Counted from the first letter of the stretch, positions 1,576 through 20,491 are shown. The stretch is DNA of 64,000 nucleotides from an uncultured Chloroflexia bacterium (GCA_963810095.1 CAWEMM010000007.1:96001-160000); one strand, 5' to 3'. Made by a program: numbers and translations. Notes: generated by a model from the letters alone, not told the origin.

Positions 1576-1662
1576 GGAGAGGTCGCATAGTTGGCCTAGT
1601 GCGCGCGTCTCGAAAACGCGTATCCTCGAAAGGGATCGTGGGTTCGAATCCCACCCTCTCCG
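1576..1662 (+). tRNA. tRNA-Ser(CGA)
   Basis: Acceptor stem GGAGAGG/CCTCTCC, anticodon arm cgcgt-ctCGAaa-acgcg, long variable arm, T loop GGTTCGAATCC, discriminator G. Confidence 0.97.
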
Positions 1663-1693
1663 CTCATGTAGCGCAAGTGCGCTACAAAGAATG

Positions 1694-8645: not shown

Positions 8646-8732
8646 GGAGAGGTCGCATAGTTCGGTCTAGTGCGCGCGATTGGAAATCGCGTATCCTGCA
8701 AGGGATCGAGGGTTCAAATCCCTCCCTCTCCG
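8646..8732 (+). tRNA. tRNA-Ser(GGA), intact; attL of the integrated element
   Basis: GGAGAGG/CCTCTCC acceptor stem, cgcga-ttGGAaa-tcgcg anticodon arm, long variable arm, GGTTCAAATCC. Confidence 0.97.
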
Positions 8733-8738
8733 CCTAAT

Positions 8739-8780
8739 AAACGAGCAGACACTGTGTGTTGTGTCTGCTCGTTTGCTTTT
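8739..8780 (+). terminator. Element-supplied terminator after the restored tRNA
   Basis: aaacgagcagacac-tgtgtgtt-gtgtctgctcgttt followed by gctttt. Confidence 0.8.
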
Positions 8781-8834
8781 ACTACTGCTTGTGGTAGGCC
8801 ACCTTAACGACCTTGAAAGGTCGAGGAGGAAGCC

Positions 8835-9776
8835 ATGCCACAAGTACATGCGATTCGCCTTAAATCCCTCCCCCCTCCCTCGGAGATTGAGACGGCAGGC
8901 CGTAGCTTCATGCTGGATCGTGAAGCGAAGCGGTGCACGGCCGCAACCTTGGCCTGGTATGAACGCTACATCGGGGCGCTGGTCTCCTGGCTGGTCGAGC
9001 GCAAGGTTTCATCGCTCGCGGACGTTAGCCCGAACCAAATACGTCAGTACCTTCTCGATCTTCGCGACCGCGGCCTCTCAGATCGCACCATACATCACCA
9101 CGCCAGCGCAGCCCGCGCCTTTTTCAATTTCTGCGTAGACGAAGAACTCACACCGGGCTCGCCTATGGCGAAGGTTCGGATGCCTCGACTCCCTAAAGAA
9201 ATCCTCCCCGCGTTCTCTCCTGACGAGATCGGCCGTTTGGTCGCGGCGTGCGAAACAGAGCGGGATCGAGCAATCGTGCTTGGGTTGCTTGACACCGGCT
9301 GCCGGCTCGCTGAGTTTCTCGCGCTGCGGGTGGGCGATGTGGACCTAGCAGGCGGCACCGTACGAATCCGTCAAGGGAAGGGCAAGAAGGATCGCACGAC
9401 CTACATGGGTTCGCAGACCCGGAGACACCTACGCCGATACCTGACCGAGCGCCCAGCTACGTACGACGGTGATCGGGTATGGCTCGTGGAGCAAGGCGAC
9501 CGGCCTCTCTCACGGATGGGGATGCAGCGACTACTTCAGCGCATCGGGGAACGCGCCCACGTCGCCAACTGCCACGCACACACTTTCAGAAGAACCTGCG
9601 CCATCACCTGCCTGCGAAACGGCATGGACGTGCACCGGTTGGCGCTGATACTTGGTCATGCCGATATCGGCGTTCTGAAGAAGTATCTGCCGTTTGTCGA
9701 GCAAGACCTGCAAGACGCTCATGTGAAGTACGGACCGGTTGACGCATTACTTGCGAAAGGCAGGTCGCAGCGATGA
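8835..9776 (+). CDS. Tyrosine recombinase/integrase (XerC/D-like, SAM-like N-domain)
   Basis: Catalytic set TGCR, GKGKK, HTFRR, LGH, KKY; SD GAGGAGG upstream; 100 bp from attL. Confidence 0.95.
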   Translation: MPQVHAIRLKSLPPPSEIETAGRSFMLDREAKRCTAATLAWYERYIGALVSWLVERKVSSLADVSPNQIRQYLLDLRDRGLSDRTIHHHASAARAFFNFCVDEELTPGSPMAKVRMPRLPKEILPAFSPDEIGRLVAACETERDRAIVLGLLDTGCRLAEFLALRVGDVDLAGGTVRIRQGKGKKDRTTYMGSQTRRHLRRYLTERPATYDGDRVWLVEQGDRPLSRMGMQRLLQRIGERAHVANCHAHTFRRTCAITCLRNGMDVHRLALILGHADIGVLKKYLPFVEQDLQDAHVKYGPVDALLAKGRSQR

Positions 9777-10523
9777 CCGCAACCACGCCGACCAGAACAC
9801 CGGCATGACATTAGAGGCGAAATTCTCCCGCCCGACAACTCCGGCGCCCTCGTTCCACGTCCTGCGCCGGCGCCCCTGATCCGCATCGCGCTGCCGAAGT
9901 CGGGCTGTGATGCGAACGATACGGGCCTTCTAGAGCACGAGGTGAGGCGCCCAGCCCGCTCCCCGTCCGTTGAGTCCGATGTTCTGGTTCCGTCCATCCA
10001 GGCGGCATTTACGGCCATTGCAGCAGCGATATGTGCCGGCACGCTGGCATGGGTGCTTGGGTGGAGCTGGCGAACGGTGATCTGCACGTTCAGCCTCGCG
10101 CTGGCGGTGTCCTGGCTGTGGCGTATGCGGGTCGCAGATGGGCTTCTATGGGAAGTCGAACGGTTCACCGGGCGCGACTTGAACGGCGACGGAGCCGTTG
10201 GAGAGCCGCCATCGCAACCCGTTCTTGTGAACGTGTGGCAAGCCCGACAAGAGGCCGCCCAGGTAAGGGCGGAGGATGATGCCGAGCGCGAACGCCAAGC
10301 CCTGACCGCTTTCCTGCACCGGTGTTTCGTAGCCGGGACATCCGAGACCGCCCACGGCGTAAAAGCCAGTGGGCCGGATCGGGATACCTACGTCAAGCAG
10401 CGGGATGCGCTGCTGAGTCTGGGCATCGCTGCTTGGCGCAACCCAGCCAAACCGCGTGCGGGCTGGCGGATCGTGGTTTCCCACCAGAAGGCGATGGAGT
10501 TGCTGAGCAGGTACACGCTCTAG
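9773..10523 (+). CDS. Hypothetical 2-TM membrane protein with DxNxDG motif and possible C-terminal wHTH (probable early frameshift)
   Basis: ATG overlaps the integrase stop (ATGA); frame open from ~9780 into ORF 9942-10523; hydrophobic pair, RDLNGDG. Confidence 0.6.
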
Positions 10524-10603
10524 GCGTACGTACGTGCTGCGTACTTGCGTACGGGCACGGCGGATTCGAGATACGCGTACCAGAAGTGGGGGGAGGAAAG
10601 ACC

Positions 10604-10939
10604 GTGAAGGAAGAAACGCCGGCTCGCGCCGAGACCCAAGCGACCGAGCATGATGTTGTCAAGGGAGCGTTCTACACGCTGAACCTGCTAGTCGCGCTGA
10701 TAAGCGGGGCGGCGGGGTTCGCCATGCCGCTTGCGTGGCTCATCACCGGGTTATGCGTGTTCTCGATGCTGATCGGGCATCAGGCCGAGGAAGCCAAGTC
10801 CGACCGGGAAGAAGTCAAGGGACGGCCGCTCGATGCGGCAGACCGGGCCGCTGGCTGCGGCCTCTCGTTCTTCCTGGCGGGCATCGTGGCGGTCGCGTTC
10901 TTCGTCGCGCTATTGAGCATCGGAGCGGGTCTGCCATGA
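10604..10939 (+). CDS. Hypothetical small membrane protein (about 3 TM)
   Basis: GGAGG SD before GTG at 10604; hydrophobic stretches. Confidence 0.6.
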   Translation: MKEETPARAETQATEHDVVKGAFYTLNLLVALISGAAGFAMPLAWLITGLCVFSMLIGHQAEEAKSDREEVKGRPLDAADRAAGCGLSFFLAGIVAVAFFVALLSIGAGLP

Positions 10940-11126
10940 CCCTTCGGGTATATCGATTCGGTATGCTTATGAAGGCATGTAGATATTATCAGATTTACTC
11001 ATAAACTTTATCGCGAAATCCGCCTCGATGGGCCGGGGGCGTCAAACAGACGGTCCCTCTCATCCCGTATCCTGGAACGGTCTGACCTGATACGGTCTGA
11101 TAACAACAAAGGCGGAGGAATCAAGA

Positions 11127-11325
11127 ATGTCGAAGTTTGTTATCGCGGTAAGTGTCGATGAGGGCGCCAACGCCCTGCTGACGCAGATCGCCAACCAGGA
11201 GGGCGAAGGCAACAAGAGCTTCGCGTTTTCGCCGCATCGTTCGGGAGGCGGCCGAGCGCCGGGGGCTAGTGGAGCCGCCGGCACGACCAACGGACGAGCA
11301 GGATGAGCGGGAGGTGATCGCGTGA
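11127..11325 (+). CDS. Ribbon-helix-helix (CopG/Arc-like) regulator with a 1-nt frameshift; not in the ORF track
   Basis: GGAGG SD; MSKFVIAVSVDEGANALLTQIANQEGEGNKSFAF then, removing one T from a T4 run, RRIVREAAERRGLVEPP...; stop overlaps the next start. Confidence 0.6.
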
Positions 11326-11591
11326 CCACCGTTAAGACGATGGCGCCCCATGTTGATTGCGGCAACACAGGGCGAGAGACGACAACGGCAGCGGGCAGCG
11401 ACCCTTGTCGTCCTGATGGTAGCCTAATTGCGGCGTGGCGTCAAGCGGCGCCGGTTATCGTAGACTGGCTTGGCCAAACGTCAGAAATGACACGAGCGGA
11501 TGGCCACACGGAAGCGGCGCAGATGTTCTGGCACGCGATGATGCTGGCTCAAGCCGCCGTTAACGCTCTTGGGTGGGACCTCCATGAATAA
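11322..11591 (+). CDS. Hypothetical protein of the replication operon
   Basis: GGAGG SD; GTGA overlap with the upstream gene and overlap with the helicase start. Confidence 0.55.
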   Translation: MTTVKTMAPHVDCGNTGRETTTAAGSDPCRPDGSLIAAWRQAAPVIVDWLGQTSEMTRADGHTEAAQMFWHAMMLAQAAVNALGWDLHE

Positions 11592-12956
11592 CGACCTTCT
11601 TTGCCCTGAGGCGGAAGAGAATCTTGTCGCCTGCGCCCTATACGATTGCAACAATTTCGTGTTGGACGTGGCGCCCGCTGAGTTCAACGATGAGCAGTTA
11701 TCGCACATCTGGGCCGCCGGCCAGAAGTTGACAAACGAGGGCGTCTACGTGGACTCCGAGGTCGTGCAATTCGAGCTGGGCAAGCAGGGGGTGAATGTTC
11801 CCCTGACGCGACTGGCCGCCTTACTCACGCGGGAGGTTTTCAGCGGCAATGCGCCCATCTGGGCCGCTGAGGTACGTGACAAGGCCCAACGGCGGGCGGC
11901 AGAGGAGCAACTAACAAAGGCACTCCGGGTGCTCTATACCTCCAACGGGACCTGGAAGACCGACCTAACCGACGTCGGGACCCAGCTGCTCAACCGCGTC
12001 ACGCCCCGGCCGGAGGCAAAACGCACCGAGCGCATGGGCGGATGGACGGCGGCCGAACTGCTGGCCTGCGATTTCCCGGAACCCATCTACGCGGTACCCG
12101 GAATCATCCCTGTCGGCCTAACGTTCTTGGGCGGGCGCCCGAAGGTCGGTAAGTCCTGGCTCGCTCTCCAATGCGCCATTGCAGTGGGCACGGGCGGGCG
12201 GGTGCTCGATAAGCAAGTGGCGCAAGGCAACGTGCTCTATCTTGCCCTTGAAGACAACGGCCGGCGGCTCAAGGAACGCAGCAAGAAACAGGGCATGCCG
12301 GCCACTGCCAAGATACGATTTGAACCGCAATGGCCGCGGCTGAACGCCGGCGGGTTTGAGGCGCTCGATGCGGCGATAGCCGAGCACCACTACACGCTCG
12401 TTGTCATCGACACGTTGGGCCGGCTCGTGGGTCGCGCCCGCACCGATGACTACGGCGACATGACCGACCTCCTGGGCCGGCTGCAAGACCTCGCCCTGGA
12501 GCACGACATGGCGATACTCGCGCTCGACCATCACCGAAAAGCTCGGCTGGCACGATGGCCGACCCTGTAGATGACATCGTGGGCAGCACAGCCAAGAGCG
12601 GGGCGGCTGACGCCATCCTCGGGTTGTTCAAGGAGCAGGGGAAACGGGGCGCTACGCTCAAAGTGACGGGGCGCGACGTGGAATGGCAAGACCTGGCGCT
12701 CTCGTGGGACGTAACCACCTGCTGTTGGCAGTACGAGGGGACGACGGAGGAAGTGGCGCAGCAAGGAAACGTCGGTAAGATCGTCGCTGCACTCCGGGAC
12801 GCGGGGGCGCCCATGACCCTGACCGAGATCGCCACGGCCACCGGGCTGGGCAAGAACAACCTGCAACCGATCCTTGTTGACATGGCGGACAACGGAATCT
12901 TGGAGCGGCTCGACCAACATGGCCGCGAGAAGCCGTATCGCCTGCGGGCGGCTTGA
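11584..12956 (+). CDS. Replication protein: DnaB-like N-terminal domain + AAA_25 (RepA-type) helicase + C-terminal wHTH; frameshift near 12550
   Basis: EAEENLVACAL...F...HIW...NA..WA..VRDKAQRR (DnaB-N-like); Walker A GRPKVGKS, YLALED, VVIDT, DHHRK, then DDIVGSTA, TGRD, MTLTEIATATG. Confidence 0.85.
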
Positions 12957-13042
12957 GAAGTGGTAGAACAATCAGAACCATAGAACTATCGGGCCTCTCG
13001 GTGCCCCGATTGTTCTGAAAGTTCTGATTGTTCTACCACTTC
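12957..13042. repeat. 86-bp nested inverted repeat; candidate replication origin
   Basis: Perfect 22-bp arms GAAGTGGTAGAACAATCAGAAC (12957-12978 / 13021-13042); inner 12-bp arms with 1 mismatch (12982-12993 / 13005-13016). Confidence 0.85.
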
Positions 13043-13152
13043 CGGGCCGTGGTACCCCAGGTTAGGCGGGCGGCTCGTGGCGGCTGACAAACATGCGGCA
13101 CGCAATTGGGCCGATAATTGGGTTATTCAGGCAGTATTTCAGGAGTGTACGA

Positions 13153-13489
13153 CATGGAAAACAACGACGGCATCACCAAACGGGATGCGCGCGGGAGGAT
13201 TGTTGCCCGTAGCGGTCCCACCCCCGGCGCCGGCCGGCCATCGCTCGAAGCAACCGAGCGGCTCCGGGTAGCGATTGAGGAATTGCTTGACGAGGAGACG
13301 TTGGCGGCTTGGCAGGCCGCCATGCGCAAGAAGCTGGCGAAGGGGAACTCGGCCGCAAGCGTGTTCGTGGCGGATCGGCTGTTGGGGAAGCCCGCTGTGA
13401 ACGTCAATAACGCGATGGATGCCAACCTTGCGGCGTTCATGACGGCCTGGAACGCCGCAAGCACCGGCCAGGAGCATGACCCGGATTGA
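13153..13489 (+). CDS. Small-terminase-like protein (DUF5681-like)
   Basis: AGGAG SD; KRDARGRI..SGPTPGAGRPS, helical middle, ADRLLGKP motif typical of this terS-like group. Confidence 0.6.
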
Positions 13490-13515
13490 CCGGCGCCAGC
13501 CGTAGCTGGCGAGTT

Positions 13516-13868
13516 CTACCTTGCTGAATTACCGAATGGGTGAACCACGCCGGCTGCGGTTGTCTCATGGGCTTGATCGGCTGCGATAACCGGGCCGGGT
13601 TGCAAGTGCCGCTCGTAATCGCCGGGGTGCCGGTGCAATCGACAACCTCGACAGTCACAACCAAGACGCCTACAGGGAAGTCGCCTGGAGTCAACCCATT
13701 GTTTGAAACCCACCCTCATCACCGGGCTTGAGGCTGGCTTAGACGTACGCCCTTTCTCGGATATTTGTAGGCCGGCTTCGGAACTCCACCCGCTTCGTGC
13801 CGCGCATGATCCGCTCGGCATACGGCTGGTGGACGCTGAGTGCAAGGGTGACAGTTGGTAGGTCTATC
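13516..13868 (-). pseudogene. ASCH-domain protein, split by several frameshifts (errors or decay)
   Basis: LALSVHQPYAERIMRGTKRVEFRSRPTNIRERAYV in one frame; FPVGVLV.TVEVVDC...NPARL..PIKP.RQPQPAWF in another. Confidence 0.75.
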
Positions 13869-14534
13869 GCCGGCCGTATTGTCGAAGCCGTGGCTGCATT
13901 GCAATCCAACGGGACTTCGTGCCGCTCGCTATGTTGCCGGAACGGCATATCAAGCCTCGCCTTCACGGTCTCTCGCGATTGAAACGAAGGACCACAGCGT
14001 TTGAGGGGTTGCTTTGCGAGGCAGAACGTACAGGCAGGGCGCCGATCTCCAGTTAGGCCAAAATCCACACCTTCGATTCAGGACGTGCGGCCCCAGCCCG
14101 ATCATTCCTTCCGCAGAATCCGTCTAGTCGCACTTCACGTGCAATCTAGTAGACGCTTAGTGAGGGTGTGCATAAGTGCACTAGATGGGGCAGAGGCTGC
14201 GGAGCGTCGCGAGACAGGGCGTCTTTTGTAGGGGTAACAATCATTGAGCAGCGTAGATGCCAGCACGTAGAATGTGCACTAGTGACCATAGGGCTGGTGT
14301 AGCCACTGACCGGGTGCACCTGACTATAGCGAGAACCTGAAGAATACGGTGGTGTAAACTTCTAGGGGTATCTCGACAACTTCATCTTCTCACGGCCCGT
14401 CGTTCATTTTCGCGTCATGTTCGTCCGCGACACTGCCTCGCGTCGTCGCCCGACGGAATGTGGCAGGCGCCCGCAACGATGGAGTTGCGCACTGTGCCGG
14501 GTATCGTGCTTGTGTAAGCGCAAAGGAGCCTTCC

Positions 14535-17500
14535 ATGTCCCGCCGCCTCATCGTCCGCATCTTGCGCACCTTGCTGCTGACCCTGCTCCTGGCCGGCCCG
14601 TCCATCGCTCCCGCTTCCGCTGATCCCGACGCCCCCGGCCGCAGGCCGCCGGCTCCATCTCCGGCCGTATCACTGACGTCATCACCGGCCAGCCCATCGC
14701 GGGCGCCACGGTCGAAGTCGTCAACACGTCCAATCCAACCACCACCACGGATGTCGATGGCCGTTACCGGTTGATCAACGTCCCCGAGGGCCAGCGCTAT
14801 CTCCTGTTAGAGCACCCTCGCTACGCCTACGAGTATTACCCGACGCGCCCACCTGGGGCCTGGGCGGGCCGGTCGAAGTGAAGGCGGGCGAGGAGACGAC
14901 CGGCATCGACGCGGCGCTCGCGCCGGGCGGGCGCATCGGCGGTCAAATCGCCGACCAGGAGACGGGCGCGCCGCTGGCCGGCGTCCGGGCGATCGCCGCG
15001 ACCAGTGGTACACCGACTGGCGGGTGGCGGGCGAGGGGGTCAGCGGCGGGGATGGACGGTATGTCATCGAGGGGCTGTGGACGAGCGTCTATCACGTAGA
15101 GTTCGTGGACGAACCGGGCGACCATGCGACGACGCAGTACGGCGACGGTGCGAGCGTGGGCCTGCTGACGGGCGAGGAGGCGGGCGGGATCGACGTCGCG
15201 ATGCCGCATGAGGGCAAGATCGCGGGGCAGGTGATCGATGCGCTGACAGGCGAGCCGCTGGCGGGCGTCACCGTGAATGTCCTCGGTGTCTCACCGGCGC
15301 GCAAACCGATCCGCAGGGCCGCTACGACATCGGCGGCCTGGCGGCGGGTGAGCAGAGACTACGCTACCGCGACGGTTACGCCGTCGTCTTCTACCGCGAC
15401 AAGCCCGACGAATACCAGGCCACACGCGTCACGGTGCACGCCGGGGAGACCACCGGCGGCATCGACCAGGCGCTGACCCCGCTCGGAGCCATCAGCGGGC
15501 GGGCGACGGATGCAGAGACTGGCACGGGGCTGGCGGGGATCGACGTGATCCTTGACCCGGGTTGAGACGGAAACAGGGACGGCGACGGAGACGGCGGGGT
15601 GTACACGATGACCAACGTGGTGCCCGGTGCGCACACCGTCGTTGTCCGCGATCCAAAGGGCGTCTATCGCGAGGCACCTGCAAAGGGCCCGGACGGCTCG
15701 GAGACGATCACCATCCAGCCGGGGCGGACGACAGAGGGCGTCAAATGCGGCGCTCGCACCCGTCGTACCGCAGCCGCCCAGCAGCCGTAAGATCACGGGC
15801 ACGGTGACAGAGATGATCACCGCGGAGCCTCTGCAGGGCATCCGAGTCACGCTGTACGACTGCTACCGCTCTACCACACCGAGTGCTGGGACGTCGGCGA
15901 AGCGTTTACGGATGCGGCGGGCGCGTACACCTTTCCCGATCCTCCGGACTCCGAGGGCATGACTTTCTCCGATCCGTCCGGCGTCTACCTGCAACAGGAC
16001 AGCGCCAGACTTCCGCTCGCCCGACGTGGACGAGACCGTCGTGATTGACATGGCCTTGCAGCGATATGATCGGGTCTACGGCGGGATTGCAGGCAGGGTC
16101 ACGGCGGCGACGACGGGAGAGGCGCTGGTGGGTCAGCAGGTCTGCGCCGAGAACACTCAAACAAGCGACTCCGGCTGTGGGCACACGGCGGCGGATGGGA
16201 CGTACACGATCAACGGGCTGAAGGCGGGCAGTACAAGGTCGGGTTCGGCTGGAGCAACTGGCGGGGTGACCGTTACTGGCGCTGGTACTACGGCGGCACG
16301 GATGTGGGGACGGACGTCAGGTACGTGCGAACGAGATCACACCGAACATCGACGGCGCGCTGCCTGAACAAGGCCGAATTGCGGGTGTGATCCGCAGCGA
16401 CGCGACGTCCGAGCCGCTTCTGGGGCGGTGGTCGAGGTGTGCAGCAACTGGTGCGACCGCCACGACTACCGCCGCCGACGGCACGTACATCAGCACCTAC
16501 CTGCCGCCCAGCGCGTCCTACCTGCCGCCCACTGCGTACTACGTGCGTGTGACGGGGGCGTACCAGCAGCGCTACTACCGCGACACGACCGACTGGCAGC
16601 AGGCCGAGAGAGATCACGGTGACCTACGACAGTCTCATCACCGGCATTGATATCAGCCTGCCGCCTGGGCGCATAGTCGGTCGGGTGACCGATGCGGCAA
16701 CGGGCACGGCGGTAAGGGAATAAGGTTTAGGCCGGGCAAGAGCTGGGGCAGCGCTACGACCGGGACGGATGGCCGCTATACCATCGGGAACCTCGATGAA
16801 GGCGGGTACCGGCTGCATTTCGAAGACCCGACGAAGGGCTACGCGCCCTTGGATGCAAGCGGGCCGATTACCGTCACGCTCGGCCGATCCTGACGTCTGA
16901 CGCGCAGCTAGTCGGCAACGGTTACATCGCGGGCCGGGTCACGGCGGCGGAGAGCGGCGCGCCGCTGGGCGGGATTGAGGTGAAGAGCGACTACCGTGCG
17001 TGGCGCCCACCACGACCGGCCCCCGACGGGACGTATAAGATCGGCCCGCTGCCTGACGGCGACTACCAGGTGCGCTTCTGGGACGGCGGGCTGCTGCGCC
17101 GGATGGAGTACTACCGGGAGACCACCGACTATAATGACTACACGCCCGTTACGGTCCGGCACGGCGAGACGACGACGGGTATCGACGAGAGCATGGACCG
17201 GCTAGCCATCGCACGGGGCCGGGTGGTGGATGCGGGCACGGGCGCGCCGGTCGCCGGGGTGAAGGTGGCGGGCAAGGGCTACTACAGCGCGAATGTCCCG
17301 GTCTACACGGACGCGGAGGGGCGCTACGAGCTGCCCGGCCTGGATGAGGGCGAGTATTCGCTGACCGCCACGGATCGCAGCCACGCCTACGTCGACGGGC
17401 AGAGCGAGACGGGTCGCGTTCCCGGTGGGGGCGGTCATCGACGTGCCGGACATCGAGCTGAAGCGATGGGGCGAGTTCGGCGGGACGGTGACGGACGCGC

Positions 17501-17844
17501 TGACCGGGGCGCCAGTGGCGGGGGTGTGGGTGCAGTTGTACGAGCGCTCTTCCGGCGAGTGGTACACCACCATCGGCGGCTGCTATGCGATCACCGGGCC
17601 GGACGGGATGTACCGCATCCGGGAGATGTACGACTGGACGGTGCGACCAGTCTTCTACGATCCGCAGGCGCGCTTCCATGCCCAGTCGTACGGCGGCGGC
17701 AAGTCGCTGCTGGACACGCAGGTGGTGACCTTCAAGCAGGGGGTGGACACGTTGGGGGTGGATGCGGCGCTTGTACGGAAGGAGGATGGGCCGCCCGTGG
17801 AGATACGGTTGCGCTTGTATCTGCCCATGATTGCAGCGCCTTGA
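14535..17844 (+). CDS. Large secreted surface protein with about 11 carboxypeptidase-regulatory-like (prealbumin-fold) repeats and a C-terminal YLP motif; heavily frameshifted
   Basis: AAGGAG SD, signal peptide MSRRLIVRILRTLLLTLLLAGPSIAPASA; recurring GxIxGxVTDxxTGxPLAGV...DGRY units about every 280 bp; ends RLYLPMIAAP. Confidence 0.8.
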
Positions 17845-17914
17845 TACGACTTTCGCTCCGCTCTAGTCGGTGCTGACACTATCTAATTTCGCTTCGAGTT
17901 GGGCTGTTGGGTTC

Positions 17915-17972
17915 TTGACAAGGGGCAACTTACGAGGCACAATAGCTTATGAGAATTGATGTCACGCAAGTT
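17915..17972 (+). promoter_or_regulatory. Promoter of the second recombinase, overlapped by an imperfect inverted repeat
   Basis: TTGACA 17915-17920, 17 bp, CACAAT 17938-17943; arms at 17927-17943 and 17955-17972. Confidence 0.55.
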
Positions 17973-18006
17973 TTCTTCAAGATCATTCGCTTTAGGGGGG
18001 GGCCGC

Positions 18007-19147
18007 ATGAACGAGCTTACCACCACTGCCAACGGCGCCGAACTGCTCGCGTTCGTGGATCAACCGCCCGACCAGAACCCGGCGCTCGTGTATCTCGCCG
18101 GACTGACGGCCGGGTCACGCCGTACGATGCGACAAGCCCTCTACACGATTGGCTCTATCGTGTTGCGCAAGACCCCATCGAGGCGACGGAGGCCGACCAA
18201 AGCCGACTGATCGCGGGATTACCGTGGGGGGCGCTCCGCTTCCAGCACACCGTCTTGATACGTTCCGAGTTGACCGCCCGTTACTCGCCGGCTTCTGCAA
18301 ACAAGCAGTTGTCGGCCCTACGGGGCGTGCTCAAGGCCGCTTGGCGCCTGGGCCAAATCGGGGCGGAAGAATATCAGCGTGCCATTGACCTCGACCGTGT
18401 ACGGGGTGGAAGTGAAGACCCACGGGGACGCGCCCTCACGCGTGGTGAGGTTCGGGCCATAATGAACGACGTGCATGACGGACGCCAGTCCCGCCGGCCT
18501 GCGGGATGGCGCCATGTTCGGGTTGTTGTACGGCGCTGGTCTTCGGCGTGCTGAATTGTCGGCTCTCGACCGTTCAGACTACTCCGTGGACGGCGACGAA
18601 AACGCAAGCCTGACCGTGCAGCACGGGAAGGGCAACAAGCGCCGGCTGATACCGCTTACGGATGGTGCCCTAGATGCGCTGCGGGACTGGCTGAGTGTCC
18701 GGGGCGATGAACCTGGGCCGTTGTTCGTGCCGGTCAATCGAGGCGGCCGGCTGATCCTGGGTCAACGAATGACGCCCCAAGCGGTCTACAACATGCTCGT
18801 GAAGCGGGCCGAACAAGCGGGCGTCAAGGGTTTCAGTCCCCACGACCTGAGGCGGACGTTCATCTCGGACCTTCTGGACGAAGGCGCCGACATTCGCGAC
18901 GGTGCAGAAGTTGGCCGGCCATGCGAACGTCACGACCACGGCCAAGTACGACCGACGAGGTGAGAGGGCCAAGCGTAAGGCGGTCGGGCTACTTGTAGTG
19001 CCGTACCAACGGCGCCGGCTAGACGAGGGACAGCGGCGTAAGCAGTCAGTACGAAGAGACCAACGGCCGGCTCGGGCTACACAACCCGGCCGGCTTTTTG
19101 GTGGGCGGCGAGATGTACCACGGGCAGGTAGACGGTTAGGGCTATAG
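18007..19147 (+). CDS. Second tyrosine recombinase, plasmid-resolvase-like; three frameshifts, true stop probably near 19050
   Basis: [71 protein letters not shown]. Confidence 0.88.
19064..19099 (+). terminator. Intrinsic terminator after the second recombinase
   Basis: gccggctcggg-ctacacaa-cccggccggc followed by ttttt. Confidence 0.6.
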
Positions 19148-19342
19148 GGTGGGGCAGGTGAGCGGGCGGTGTGTGCTAACGGACCTCTCTGAACAGCGGA
19201 ATGATGTGCGCTTATGGGTGTGTGGTACGGCCCTGTAGATTTTCAAAATTCCGGGTTTTTGGCGGTGATTGAGGGAGACGAAGCAGCTAAGACATGCGCC
19301 GAGGCCCGGTCTCCCTCAGGGATGGCTACTGCGGGCCGCCTT

Positions 19343-19543
19343 CTACCGCCACATCAGCACGATTCCAGCGTGGACCGTCCCGCCACCGGTGAGATGCACG
19401 CGCCATAATCGGCCCTGGGGTTGATCGACGGCGACCACGAAGACGCCTTCGGGGTAATGCTTCTTTAGCCTCTTCCAGCGCTTCTGTAGGTCTTTGGGCA
19501 GATCCTTCAGGGGGTCGGGGAGCTTGGGGAAATCCTTGTCCAT
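19343..19543 (-). CDS. Small hypothetical protein near attR
   Basis: 66-aa ORF with AAGGA SD and protein-like composition; no family recognised. Confidence 0.45.
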   Translation of the reverse strand: MDKDFPKLPDPLKDLPKDLQKRWKRLKKHYPEGVFVVAVDQPQGRLWRVHLTGGGTVHAGIVLMWR

Positions 19544-19814
19544 TTGACATTTCCTTCACGTGGGCTTATCGTACCGCCCAGAAATATAAATGCCGGTTTG
19601 GTGCCGTTTAACACCTCGCCGGCATGGTGACACAGTGGAAGAAGCACTGCACACCGGGAGCGATTATAAAGGCGCTCGTGCTTGTCCACAAGTCGGCACG
19701 GGCGCCCTTCTTTTGTCGCCCGAGTATATGCGACTAACCTTAAATCGCAATTTTCCAATCCAGCTTCGCCTACTACATGTAGTAGTAGAGACGAAAGGAC
19801 ATACAGCATACAGT

Positions 19815-19896
19815 GTCGCATAGTTCGGTCTAGTCCGCACGATTGGAAATCGCGTATCCTGCAAGGGATCGAGGGTTCAAATCCCTCCCTCTCCGC
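19815..19896 (+). repeat. attR: pseudo-tRNA-Ser(GGA) lacking the first 6 nt
   Basis: Matches 8652-8733 except two substitutions (tagtGcgcGcg to tagtCcgcAcg) that disrupt the D and anticodon stems. Confidence 0.95.
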
Positions 19897-19901
19897 TGAG
19901 T

Positions 19902-19942: not shown

Positions 19943-20044
19943 GGCAGCACGCCCGCGTGACGAAGGGTCGGACCCTGGCGGGAGCTTTCTAGCTTGCTTT
20001 TTGCCGAGGGTCGCCTGGCCCCTGGCGGGAGCGCTCTTCCTTTT

Positions 20045-20360
20045 TTTGGCGAGGGCCGGCTGGCCCCCGCCGCCCGGCTGCCGCCGCCCCCGCTTCGGGG
20101 GCGTAGCCCCCGAAACCCCCAAAGGGTACGCTCCTGGCGCTTCTCATCGACCGGATCGCGTCAAACTCCCTCACAGAGGGCGCCTTGTGGAGGGCGCGCC
20201 CCACGGACTTAGTTTTGCCCGAGCCCGTCTCTGGCAGCCGCGCGACGCTCCGCACGCCGCCGCCGGGATAAGGGCGGACGGGCCGTTCCCCGAGCAGCGT
20301 TGGGGGTCAAGGGGGCGCAGCCCCTTGTCGGGGGCGGCGGGGGCAAGAGGGCCCCCGCCA
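20045..20360. repeat. REPIN/BIME-like composite repeat (two inverted GC-rich units); homologous to 34897-35168
   Basis: GCAGCGTTG..GGGGTCAAGGGGGCGCAGCCCCTTGTCGGGGGCGGCGGGGGCAAGAG and TTTGGCGAGGGCCGGC both recur as reverse complements at 34.9-35.2 kb. Confidence 0.8.
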
Positions 20361-20491
20361 CAACACCTTATCTGGCATATCGGGCAAACCCCGCTGGAGT
20401 GCCGCCCGACTGTCAGCCTCCCATCAGCCTCCAGACAAGCGCTGACATTGCGTCGGGTGTATACTGTCTTCAGTGCGGTGAAGGAGGCTCT

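Follow-up and report, generated by a model that had tools for sequence, protein, structure and literature searches.

To our knowledge nearly all phage satellites described so far come from Proteobacteria and Firmicutes. Small islands that integrate at tRNA genes and carry an integrase, a replication gene and small membrane proteins are also found among the actinomycete integrative and conjugative elements (AICEs) and other integrative and conjugative or mobilizable elements (ICEs and IMEs). The island described here lies in a 64,000-nucleotide stretch of DNA from an uncultured Chloroflexia bacterium (GCA_963810095.1 CAWEMM010000007.1:96001-160000), the whole of which is referred to below as the window. 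It consists of 11,163 bp (8735-19897) between tRNA-Ser(GGA) and an 83-nt copy of that gene and, judged from its sequence, is very probably a genuine site-specific integrative replicon belonging to a new Chloroflexota family related to phages.

In outline the island resembles the phage-inducible chromosomal islands (PICIs), including the Staphylococcus aureus pathogenicity islands (SaPIs), having in common with them a size of about 10 kb, an integrase at one end followed by a regulator and then a replication protein, an origin just 3′ of the replication gene, a small DNA-binding-type gene in the position of terS and cargo downstream (PMC10085698). Proteobacteria and Firmicutes held >99.9% of the PICIs detected by SatelliteFinder, and "Chloroflex" occurs 0 times in the main text of that paper (PMC10085698). 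When the Pfam and PHROG matches of the island were set against the SatelliteFinder component definitions given there, the core integrase was found (Phage_integrase 9e-30; phrog_1 1e-47) and the components forbidden in PICIs (tail, holin and portal) were absent from the open reading frames (ORFs) scanned. The regulation module of PICIs (alpA, merR or stl) had no Pfam or PHROG match, a gene resembling ribbon-helix-helix (RHH) regulators standing there instead, while the place of the primase-replicase is taken by a helicase with AAA_25 and DnaB-N domains, no primase domain being found in the ORFs scanned. Likewise no head or packaging family was matched in these ORFs, capsid morphogenesis being optional in Type B PICIs, and the candidate small terminase, orf123, is a remote relative of DUF5681 with no match to a terS model. 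On our count three of the five SatelliteFinder core components are lacking or in doubt. No protein of the island is itself a recognised PICI component, and the island has in addition a membrane and winged-helix-like hallmark gene, orf193, and a second recombinase. An initial annotation made from the sequence alone had proposed a PICI-like satellite with a non-canonical toolkit; in the absence of alpA, merR, stl and primase matches, the extra tyrosine recombinase and the order integrase, regulator, helicase, palindrome, orf123 and cargo, its description of the toolkit and of the gene order has held.

In build the island is closest to the tycheposons of Prochlorococcus, which likewise have a tyrosine recombinase targeting tRNA genes, att copies made of partial tRNAs and swappable replication modules (DnaB-type, VirE/VapE-type or primase), with members carrying cargo or a terS-type gene and forming tandem arrays at tRNAs (bioRxiv 10.1101/2020.12.28.424599). 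They differ in coming from another phylum and in that orf193 was not seen among the gene labels of that preprint, the comparison here being one of build. AICEs and other ICEs or IMEs are distinguished by an FtsK-like Tra protein, a relaxase or a type IV secretion system, none of which was recognised in the island; the VirB4 and relaxase families PF03135 and PF03432 had no match in the whole of the genome, FtsK having been looked for in the element only. The difference from a prophage is that capsid, portal, TerL and tail genes are missing from the island and PF05065, PF04860, PF03237 and PF03354 from the genome. In keeping with the initial annotation, no Pfam or PHROG family for capsid, portal, tail, lysis, large terminase, relaxase or type IV secretion was matched in the ORFs scanned, and a search of the literature available to us found no description of a phage satellite or of such an integrative element in Chloroflexota.

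Insertion at tRNA-Ser(GGA)

Repeat search and alignment showed that the two att copies (Table 1) agree over 83 nt with 2 mismatches. The tRNA gene and the genes of the right flank are present in all seven congeners, and in three of them (G001, G005 and G006) the site is empty, the tRNA being followed after about 0.3-0.8 kb by homologues of the window from 20409 onward, with exact positions varying slightly among the three. The direct repeats earlier named as the bounds of the element are borne out, and empty sites, suggested then as a check, are seen in these congeners. The attL copy does not differ from the empty-site tRNA of G001, and the two bases at which attR departs from it (at the equivalents of 8672 and 8676) occur in no empty site, indicating that the left part of attR is derived from the element and consequently that the crossover took place 3′ of tRNA position 31. 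Insertion by a tyrosine-recombinase crossover 3′ of this position is shown or nearly shown. A G+C-rich hairpin and a T-run lie 3′ of each att copy, the hairpins differing between attL and attR, and the sequence of the hairpin after attL is also unlike those at the congener empty sites; the hairpin after attL is the element's own and that after attR the host's. Since the element supplied its own 3′ part of the tRNA together with a terminator, the tRNA gene is still whole. Apart from the tRNA terminator, a scan for promoters and terminators gave counts near those expected from shuffled sequence, and neither of the two ORFs in the low-GC stretch before attR matched any family.

The congener G002, in which about 10 kb separate the tRNA from the right flank, was considered as a relative and rejected, as it has no element genes and no second att copy. 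In G004 a copy of tRNA-Ser(GGA) without its 5′ end, and so like attR, lies 3.9 kb from the right-flank genes (L058:5801-5882, G004:C35) and may be a scar or the end of another island. A tRNA-Ser(CGA) gene, 87-88% identical to tRNA-Ser(GGA), is found 7 kb upstream (window 1576-1663) and the pair is kept in the congeners. To the right of attR there is a short dispersed repeat (window 20035-20140 and 20300-20380) that is in part an inverted pair (20044-20075 and 20332-20363). The same stretch has 63 further matches in its own genome, mostly on that repeat, with a few more in G004, and the repeat looks like a family of the repetitive extragenic palindrome or miniature inverted-repeat transposable element type.

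Table 1. Features of the island and its ends, numbered from the first letter of the window (aa, amino acids; GC3, G+C content at third codon positions).
Feature	Position	Strand	Evidence and remarks
tRNA-Ser(GGA)	8646-8734	+	ARAGORN; its 3′ 83 nt (8652-8734) form attL
Element-borne terminator-like hairpin	8738-8775	+	Terminator scan; 3′ of the rebuilt tRNA
int1, Xer-like tyrosine integrase	8835-9776	+	Pfam, PHROG, NCBIfam
orf193-family gene	9789-10523	+	Membrane helical hairpin and winged-helix-like C-terminal domain; hallmark of the family
Small membrane protein	10586-10939	+	Three hydrophobic segments; GC3 frame plot, hydropathy; start codon uncertain
Internal att-like 19-mer	11062-11080	+	16/19 bases match the att part just 3′ of the anticodon
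RHH-like regulator gene	11127-~11325	+	Frame broken within a T-run near 11226-11229
Small ORF (89 aa)	11322-11591	+	ORF list; overlaps the helicase start
Replicative helicase	11569-12956	+	DnaB-N-like, AAA_25 (RepA-like) ATPase and C-terminal winged helix; one frame break at about 12525-12545
86-bp palindrome, candidate replication origin	12957-13042		Directly 3′ of the helicase stop codon
orf123 (111 aa; 123 aa from 13118)	13154-13489 (or from 13118)	+	Remote DUF5681-family protein; candidate small terminase or DNA-recognition protein
ASCH-domain gene	13516-14068	-	Contains a stop codon and a change of frame
Secreted surface protein	14460-17844	+	CarboxypepD_reg repeats across 14460-17876 (Pfam); signal-like segment; at least 8 frame pieces
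rec2, second Xer-like tyrosine recombinase	17956-19147	+	Pfam, NCBIfam; 3-4 frame pieces
Low-GC stretch	19214-19821		GC 0.57; two unsupported ORFs, 19214-19408(+) and 19507-19821(-)
attR	19815-19897	+	tRNA copy without the first 6 nt, then the host's own terminator-like hairpin to ~19940

A modular family with int and orf193

Genes resembling orf193 were found in 13 loci, counting the window and including some near-duplicates. In seven of the 13 a homologue of int1 is directly beside the orf193-like gene, on its upstream side, also adjoining a tRNA or att copy in the five of those seven where one was seen; recombination at the tRNA site is probably the work of int1. Two of the loci are islands bounded by att copies. 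In L040 (duplicated as L047) an island of 9,245 bp lies between 77-nt perfect copies of tRNA-Gly(TCC) and carries, in order, int, an orf193-like gene, genes for transmembrane proteins, an RHH-like gene, a PrimPol/VapE replicase (4e-44), a RusA-like nuclease, a relative of orf123 (47% identical) and SH3 cargo. In L043 an island of 8,776 bp between 48-nt copies of tRNA-Val(CAC) has int, an orf193-like gene and a replicase of the CHC2-primase/helicase type with a winged helix, with ACATGTGCACATGT repeats at the end of the replicase gene. A third relative, L050, is a metagenome contig of 6,815 nt with an exact terminal overlap of 56 nt and the split ends of the same gene, and is a circular form, carrying a whole tRNA-Lys(CTT), int, an orf193-like gene and a gene for a 404-aa winged-helix protein. 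It is very probable that the island is one member of a modular family of 7-11 kb in Chloroflexota which int and orf193 define and in which the replicases are swappable. Conserved gene order had been named beforehand as one of the points on which the proposal would turn, and the layout recurs in both att-bounded islands, L040 and L043. All six genome-collection records with an orf193-like gene are titled Chloroflexota metagenome-assembled genomes (MAGs), which fits the Chloroflexota host suggested at the outset. A copy of orf193 with 99% identity (P0010) is found in an ENA assembly on a contig 11,245 nt long, almost exactly the length of the island measured over both att copies (11,246 nt), suggesting that in that assembly the element forms a contig by itself.

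Relatives of orf193 (n = 21, 236-312 aa) contain no Pfam domain, and those of full length align by tblastn with 9789-10520 in one frame, in which no canonical start codon occurs before 9942. Transmembrane segments were recognised by hydropathy, and an AF2 model had a mean pLDDT (predicted local distance difference test) of 74, exceeding 90 in the C-terminal part. A fold search of the PDB with this model gave 0 matches at E≤0.001 and only a weak resemblance to MarR, ArsR and ORC winged helices, so that the predicted winged-helix nature of the C-terminal domain is only a lead. The nearest ESM Atlas clusters of orf193 are 80-88% viral, and the neighbours of orf193 and orf123 there are mostly viral. 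L054, an IMG/VR fragment (CheckV 55%), encodes a replication initiator, a DnaC-like loader, a methylase, an orf193 relative, RusA, an orf123 relative, a homing endonuclease and TerL, and through it both signature genes of the island are common to phages. With several function-unassigned membrane proteins adjoining int, viral neighbours in the ESM Atlas and a size similar to the genomes of small enveloped bacterial viruses, one might imagine a temperate virus of very small size with particle proteins that escape recognition, perhaps forming a membrane-containing virion from the membrane ORFs and the surface protein. This is pure conjecture and highly improbable, as the surface gene has a chromosomal paralogue with 60-75% identity and is absent from L040 and L043, and no capsid-like fold or family was found.

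The small membrane protein gene downstream of orf193 matched no family in Pfam or PHROG; it and orf193 are the two membrane ORFs first noticed, both seen by hydropathy. An RHH regulator had also been claimed, and the gene can be recognised by eye as an N-terminal piece and a C-terminal piece in the next frame, but the N-terminal piece gave no hidden Markov model match. RHH-like genes occupy the same place in L040 and in L045/L046. The 89-aa ORF that follows had a weak match to phrog_12449 (1.3e-3) and no tblastn match in the related loci. In L040 a 77-aa protein with a glycine/arginine-rich N-terminal part is encoded at 9791-10024, and proteins of this type recur near orf193-like genes in L045, L046, L048, L051 and L052, which are larger loci without an adjacent integrase.

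The helicase is made up of a first piece (11569-12570) with AAA_25 (3e-25) and DnaB-N (1e-3) and a continuation (12555-12956) with HTH_IclR (1e-6), all by Pfam. In PHROG it matched the DnaB-like phrog_19 (1.7e-19) and the helicase parts of primase/helicase families, and its N-terminal part matched TIGR03600 (phage_DnaB) at 1.4e-11, below the cut-off. The AAA_25 core aligns with the hexameric RepA helicase of RSF1010 (1g8y), the closest solved structure, albeit weakly (E 0.0015), and the N-terminal domain resembles DnaB-N and phage_DnaB; unlike RepA and the phage DnaB-family helicases, the island protein adds a C-terminal winged helix and scores far below the family cut-offs. The palindrome 3′ of the gene has perfect arms of 22 nt (12957-12978 and 13021-13042) and a DNA folding energy of -38.7 kcal/mol (z = -10.6, a fold as stable arising in 0 of 200 shuffles). 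In six of eight related loci strong repeats or palindromes likewise adjoin the 3′ end of the helicase gene, the other two being weak cases, and repeats also follow the unrelated replicase of L043. Both the helicase domains and the palindrome are as initially described.

The helicase has two paralogues in its own genome, and relatives in 18 of 60 other genomes searched, usually near an integrase. The first paralogue is intact, with 495 aa and 57% identity (G000:C8:51894-53276; L025:9865-11352, minus strand), and aligns across the break in the island gene in two frames, the second of which is open from 12525. The paralogue lies directly left of tRNA-Gly(CCC) and has two 137-nt tandem repeats after it, with a fragmentary int1-like gene right of the tRNA. 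The other (45%) is found with an integrase at G000:C6:20904-24580 (L026), beside 46 nt repeated from the 3′ end of tRNA-Pro(CGG), the tRNA itself, with the other copy, being 3,092 nt away, which suggests a tandem or remnant array. Elsewhere in the genome an integrase 47% identical to int1 directly follows tRNA-Arg(CCT) (G000:C6:453803-454681; L027:7804-8682) and probably marks another island.

In addition to the matches given above, int1 has SAM-like N-terminal domains in Pfam and NCBIfam matches that are XerC/XerA-like. The second recombinase, rec2, has a Phage_integrase domain at 18475-18963 (7e-23), and both proteins are Xer-like and score below every NCBIfam cut-off. A counterpart of rec2 was not seen in L040 or L043 by tblastn of the related loci, and rec2 may resolve multimers or belong to the cargo. 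An integrase and a resolvase had been proposed originally; a second tyrosine recombinase is indeed present, but the term resolvase was a guess. Between the two recombinases the att-like 19-mer, one of 3 matches in the window where 0.01 are expected, shows no similarity to att past its own 19 nt and is possibly a site for a recombinase or regulator. With a recombinase at each end and an array at tRNA-Pro in the same genome, the 19-mer could be taken as the old junction between two tandem elements, int1 to the small membrane protein gene (8735-11061) and the RHH-like gene to rec2 (11081-19814). Such an origin is very unlikely because the same gene run is continuous elsewhere, from int through orf193, transmembrane and RHH-like genes to the replicase in L040 and from int and orf193 to the replicase in L043, in compact and unbroken layouts with no internal att and no second recombinase.

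Cargo genes and frame breaks

The ASCH domain and surface protein recognised in the initial annotation were both found by Pfam, the ASCH match (7e-5) covering only the first 28 profile positions (13739-14068, minus strand), with phrog_3193 at 2.5e-9. The surface protein has an intact paralogue of 1101 aa in its own genome (L028:3915-7220; G000:C6:902914-906219), to which segments are 60-75% identical, indicating that the cargo gene was probably acquired from this lineage. Alignment to this paralogue, read together with the GC3 plot, places 7 frame changes in the island gene, and the breaks in the ASCH gene were seen by reading three frames.

In total the element contains at least 12 frame breaks or stops, in the RHH-like, helicase, ASCH and rec2 genes and above all in the surface gene, while flank ORFs of 800-1100 aa in the same window are intact. 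The breaks might be real decay, in which case the island would no longer be mobile, being a dead island or what is left of a prophage at its early-gene end. The missing start codon of orf193 would also fit this explanation, as would the fact that the genes common to phage fragments are early or lysogeny-region genes. The public run X1, the only one sharing words with the element (share 0.06, depth 2-3) and is too thin to show excision joints, yielded short contigs with 0-1 substitutions relative to the window but with 1-2-base indels at 10 element positions (14435, 14458, 14465, 14496, 15743, 15871, 18469, 19029, 19032 and 19224), two flank contigs having no indel. In our reading three of these indels, at 15743, 15871 and 18469, bring back the frame predicted by homology and by codon bias or GC3, and the one-base difference at 18469 rejoins two pieces of rec2. 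The copy of orf193 that is 99% identical in another assembly (P0010) is cut at a different place. These indels and the differently cut copy led us to treat most of the breaks as consensus errors of this assembly, and on the sequence comparison most are probably such errors, as had been suspected from the start. With intact att sites and a compact layout unbroken in L040 and L043, a decaying remnant is improbable.

Candidate small terminase and lifestyle

It is gene position that makes orf123 a candidate for the terS role. The ORF first annotated as terS-like (13153-13489) exists, but direct similarity to terS is lacking and the protein proved to be a remote relative of DUF5681. Seven close relatives are known, further relatives being present in L040, L054 and L062, the last also a phage fragment with an orf123-like gene upstream of TerL. 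None of the eight close family members matches the DUF5681 model (PF18932) at E≤10, and the family profile gave only noise against the PDB (E≥0.33). The profile found 373 representatives at E≤0.001. Among the 141 that were aligned, taken from the best 150 of the 373, 43 match PF18932 at E≤0.001 and every other family has at most one match among them. Likewise in the ESM Atlas orf123 is next to DUF5681 clusters (score 0.95, 173-174 shared features), and it shares with the DUF5681 proteins of phages a Gly/Arg/Pro-rich N-terminal motif (G14, R15, G25, G27, R28) and a helical C-terminal part, differing from them in that none of its close family members matches the Pfam model directly.

The only hint of function for DUF5681-type genes is their position in some phages. 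One such relative (P0068) matches gp36 of Nonlabens phage P12024S, whose gene overlaps the beginning of that for the annotated large terminase, gp37; four others (P0101, P0062, P0158 and P0085) had no match among cultured phages, where orf123 itself (P0001) gave only chance matches by tblastn (E 0.3). In Salmonella phage STGO-35-1 the DUF5681 coding sequence is CDS 88, the highest-numbered in Table 1 of the paper describing it, where terL is the starting point of the re-oriented genome (PMC8954984), from which we infer that it is the last coding sequence and hence next to terL. In the island L043 the protein two genes past the replicase, in the syntenic slot, has 127 aa, falls just short of the cut-off in its match to PF13022 (3e-6) and matches seven PHROG families of terminase small subunits, at best with 1e-6. 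An hhalign comparison of orf123 with this terS-like gene gave a probability of 0.13, with no profile similarity.

With its own integrase, helicase and candidate origin and two phage-related genes, and without genes for a particle, the island may plausibly live as a phage satellite packaged by a helper, a reading that we hold tentatively and with slightly less than even confidence. On induction int1 would excise a circle and the RHH protein would control the rightward operon, while the RepA/DnaB-like helicase with its winged helix would load at, or open, the palindrome 3′ of its own gene and amplify the circle. More speculatively, the DUF5681-like orf123 would act as a DNA-recognition protein of small-terminase type, steering the large terminase and capsids of a helper onto the DNA of the element, which would then spread as a phage satellite with the surface protein, the ASCH protein and the second recombinase as cargo. 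The helper-dependent, PICI-like satellite of the initial annotation is sustained as regards discrete insertion, gene order, conserved layout and the phage relatives of two genes, but no evidence of a helper, of packaging or of an excision junction was found.

A number of observations weigh against packaging, in addition to the frame breaks discussed above. There was no direct match of orf123 to Pfam, PHROG, NCBIfam or PDB models. Its AF2 model is poor (pLDDT 59), so that a BFVD fold search with 0 matches at E≤0.001 is uninformative. The one PHROG matched by many of its relatives, phrog_38011 (48 of the 141), is assigned no function by PHROGs. The orf123-like gene is 4.3 kb upstream of TerL in L054 and 2.7 kb upstream in L062, with several ORFs between, placing it between the early genes and TerL, and orf123 could instead be a late regulator. 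Scans of the IMG/VR viral contigs with orf123 and profile A5 found nothing, no satellite-sized contig included, and the same held for a scan of genome contigs with profile A3. In a sample of 401 genomes of the class, only 2 have a relative of orf123. As for helpers, the four families absent from the genome (88.5% complete) are joined there by the TerL of L054, the TerL of L062 was found in 0 of 37 family genomes, and no capsid-remodelling or interference gene was found in the element.

In a different lifestyle the island would integrate and replicate but would dispense with packaging by a phage, being plasmid-like or similar to the cargo-type tycheposons, with orf123 as a regulator and the circle moving by vesicles, transformation, cell fusion or an unknown mobilizer. 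The circular relative of 6.8 kb, L050, has no orf123-like gene, the cargo is large with a surface gene of 3.4 kb, no helper or packaging gene emerged from the genome and family queries, and the ENA contig with the 99% copy of orf193 is close to the full att-to-att span. Tycheposons are built from modules in the same way, and among them are forms that carry cargo only and are enriched in vesicles (bioRxiv 10.1101/2020.12.28.424599). On the other side two hallmark genes have phage relatives, the syntenic slot of L043 holds a terS-like gene and neither relaxase nor VirB4 was found in the element or genome, which leaves non-packaged transfer a serious possibility that we nevertheless regard as rather unlikely. 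Returning to the packaged satellite, DUF5681-type genes might form an unrecognised class of small terminase common to int and orf193 satellites throughout the Chloroflexota and to helper phages related to L054 and L062, a proposal that is itself doubtful.

If the island is packaged by phage, the satellite lifestyle would extend to a large and mostly uncultured phylum, the int and orf193 genes would serve as a marker pair for spotting such islands in MAGs, and DUF5681 would gain a function that can be tested. If it is not packaged, the island would represent a clean tycheposon-like modular integrative replicon outside the marine picocyanobacteria.

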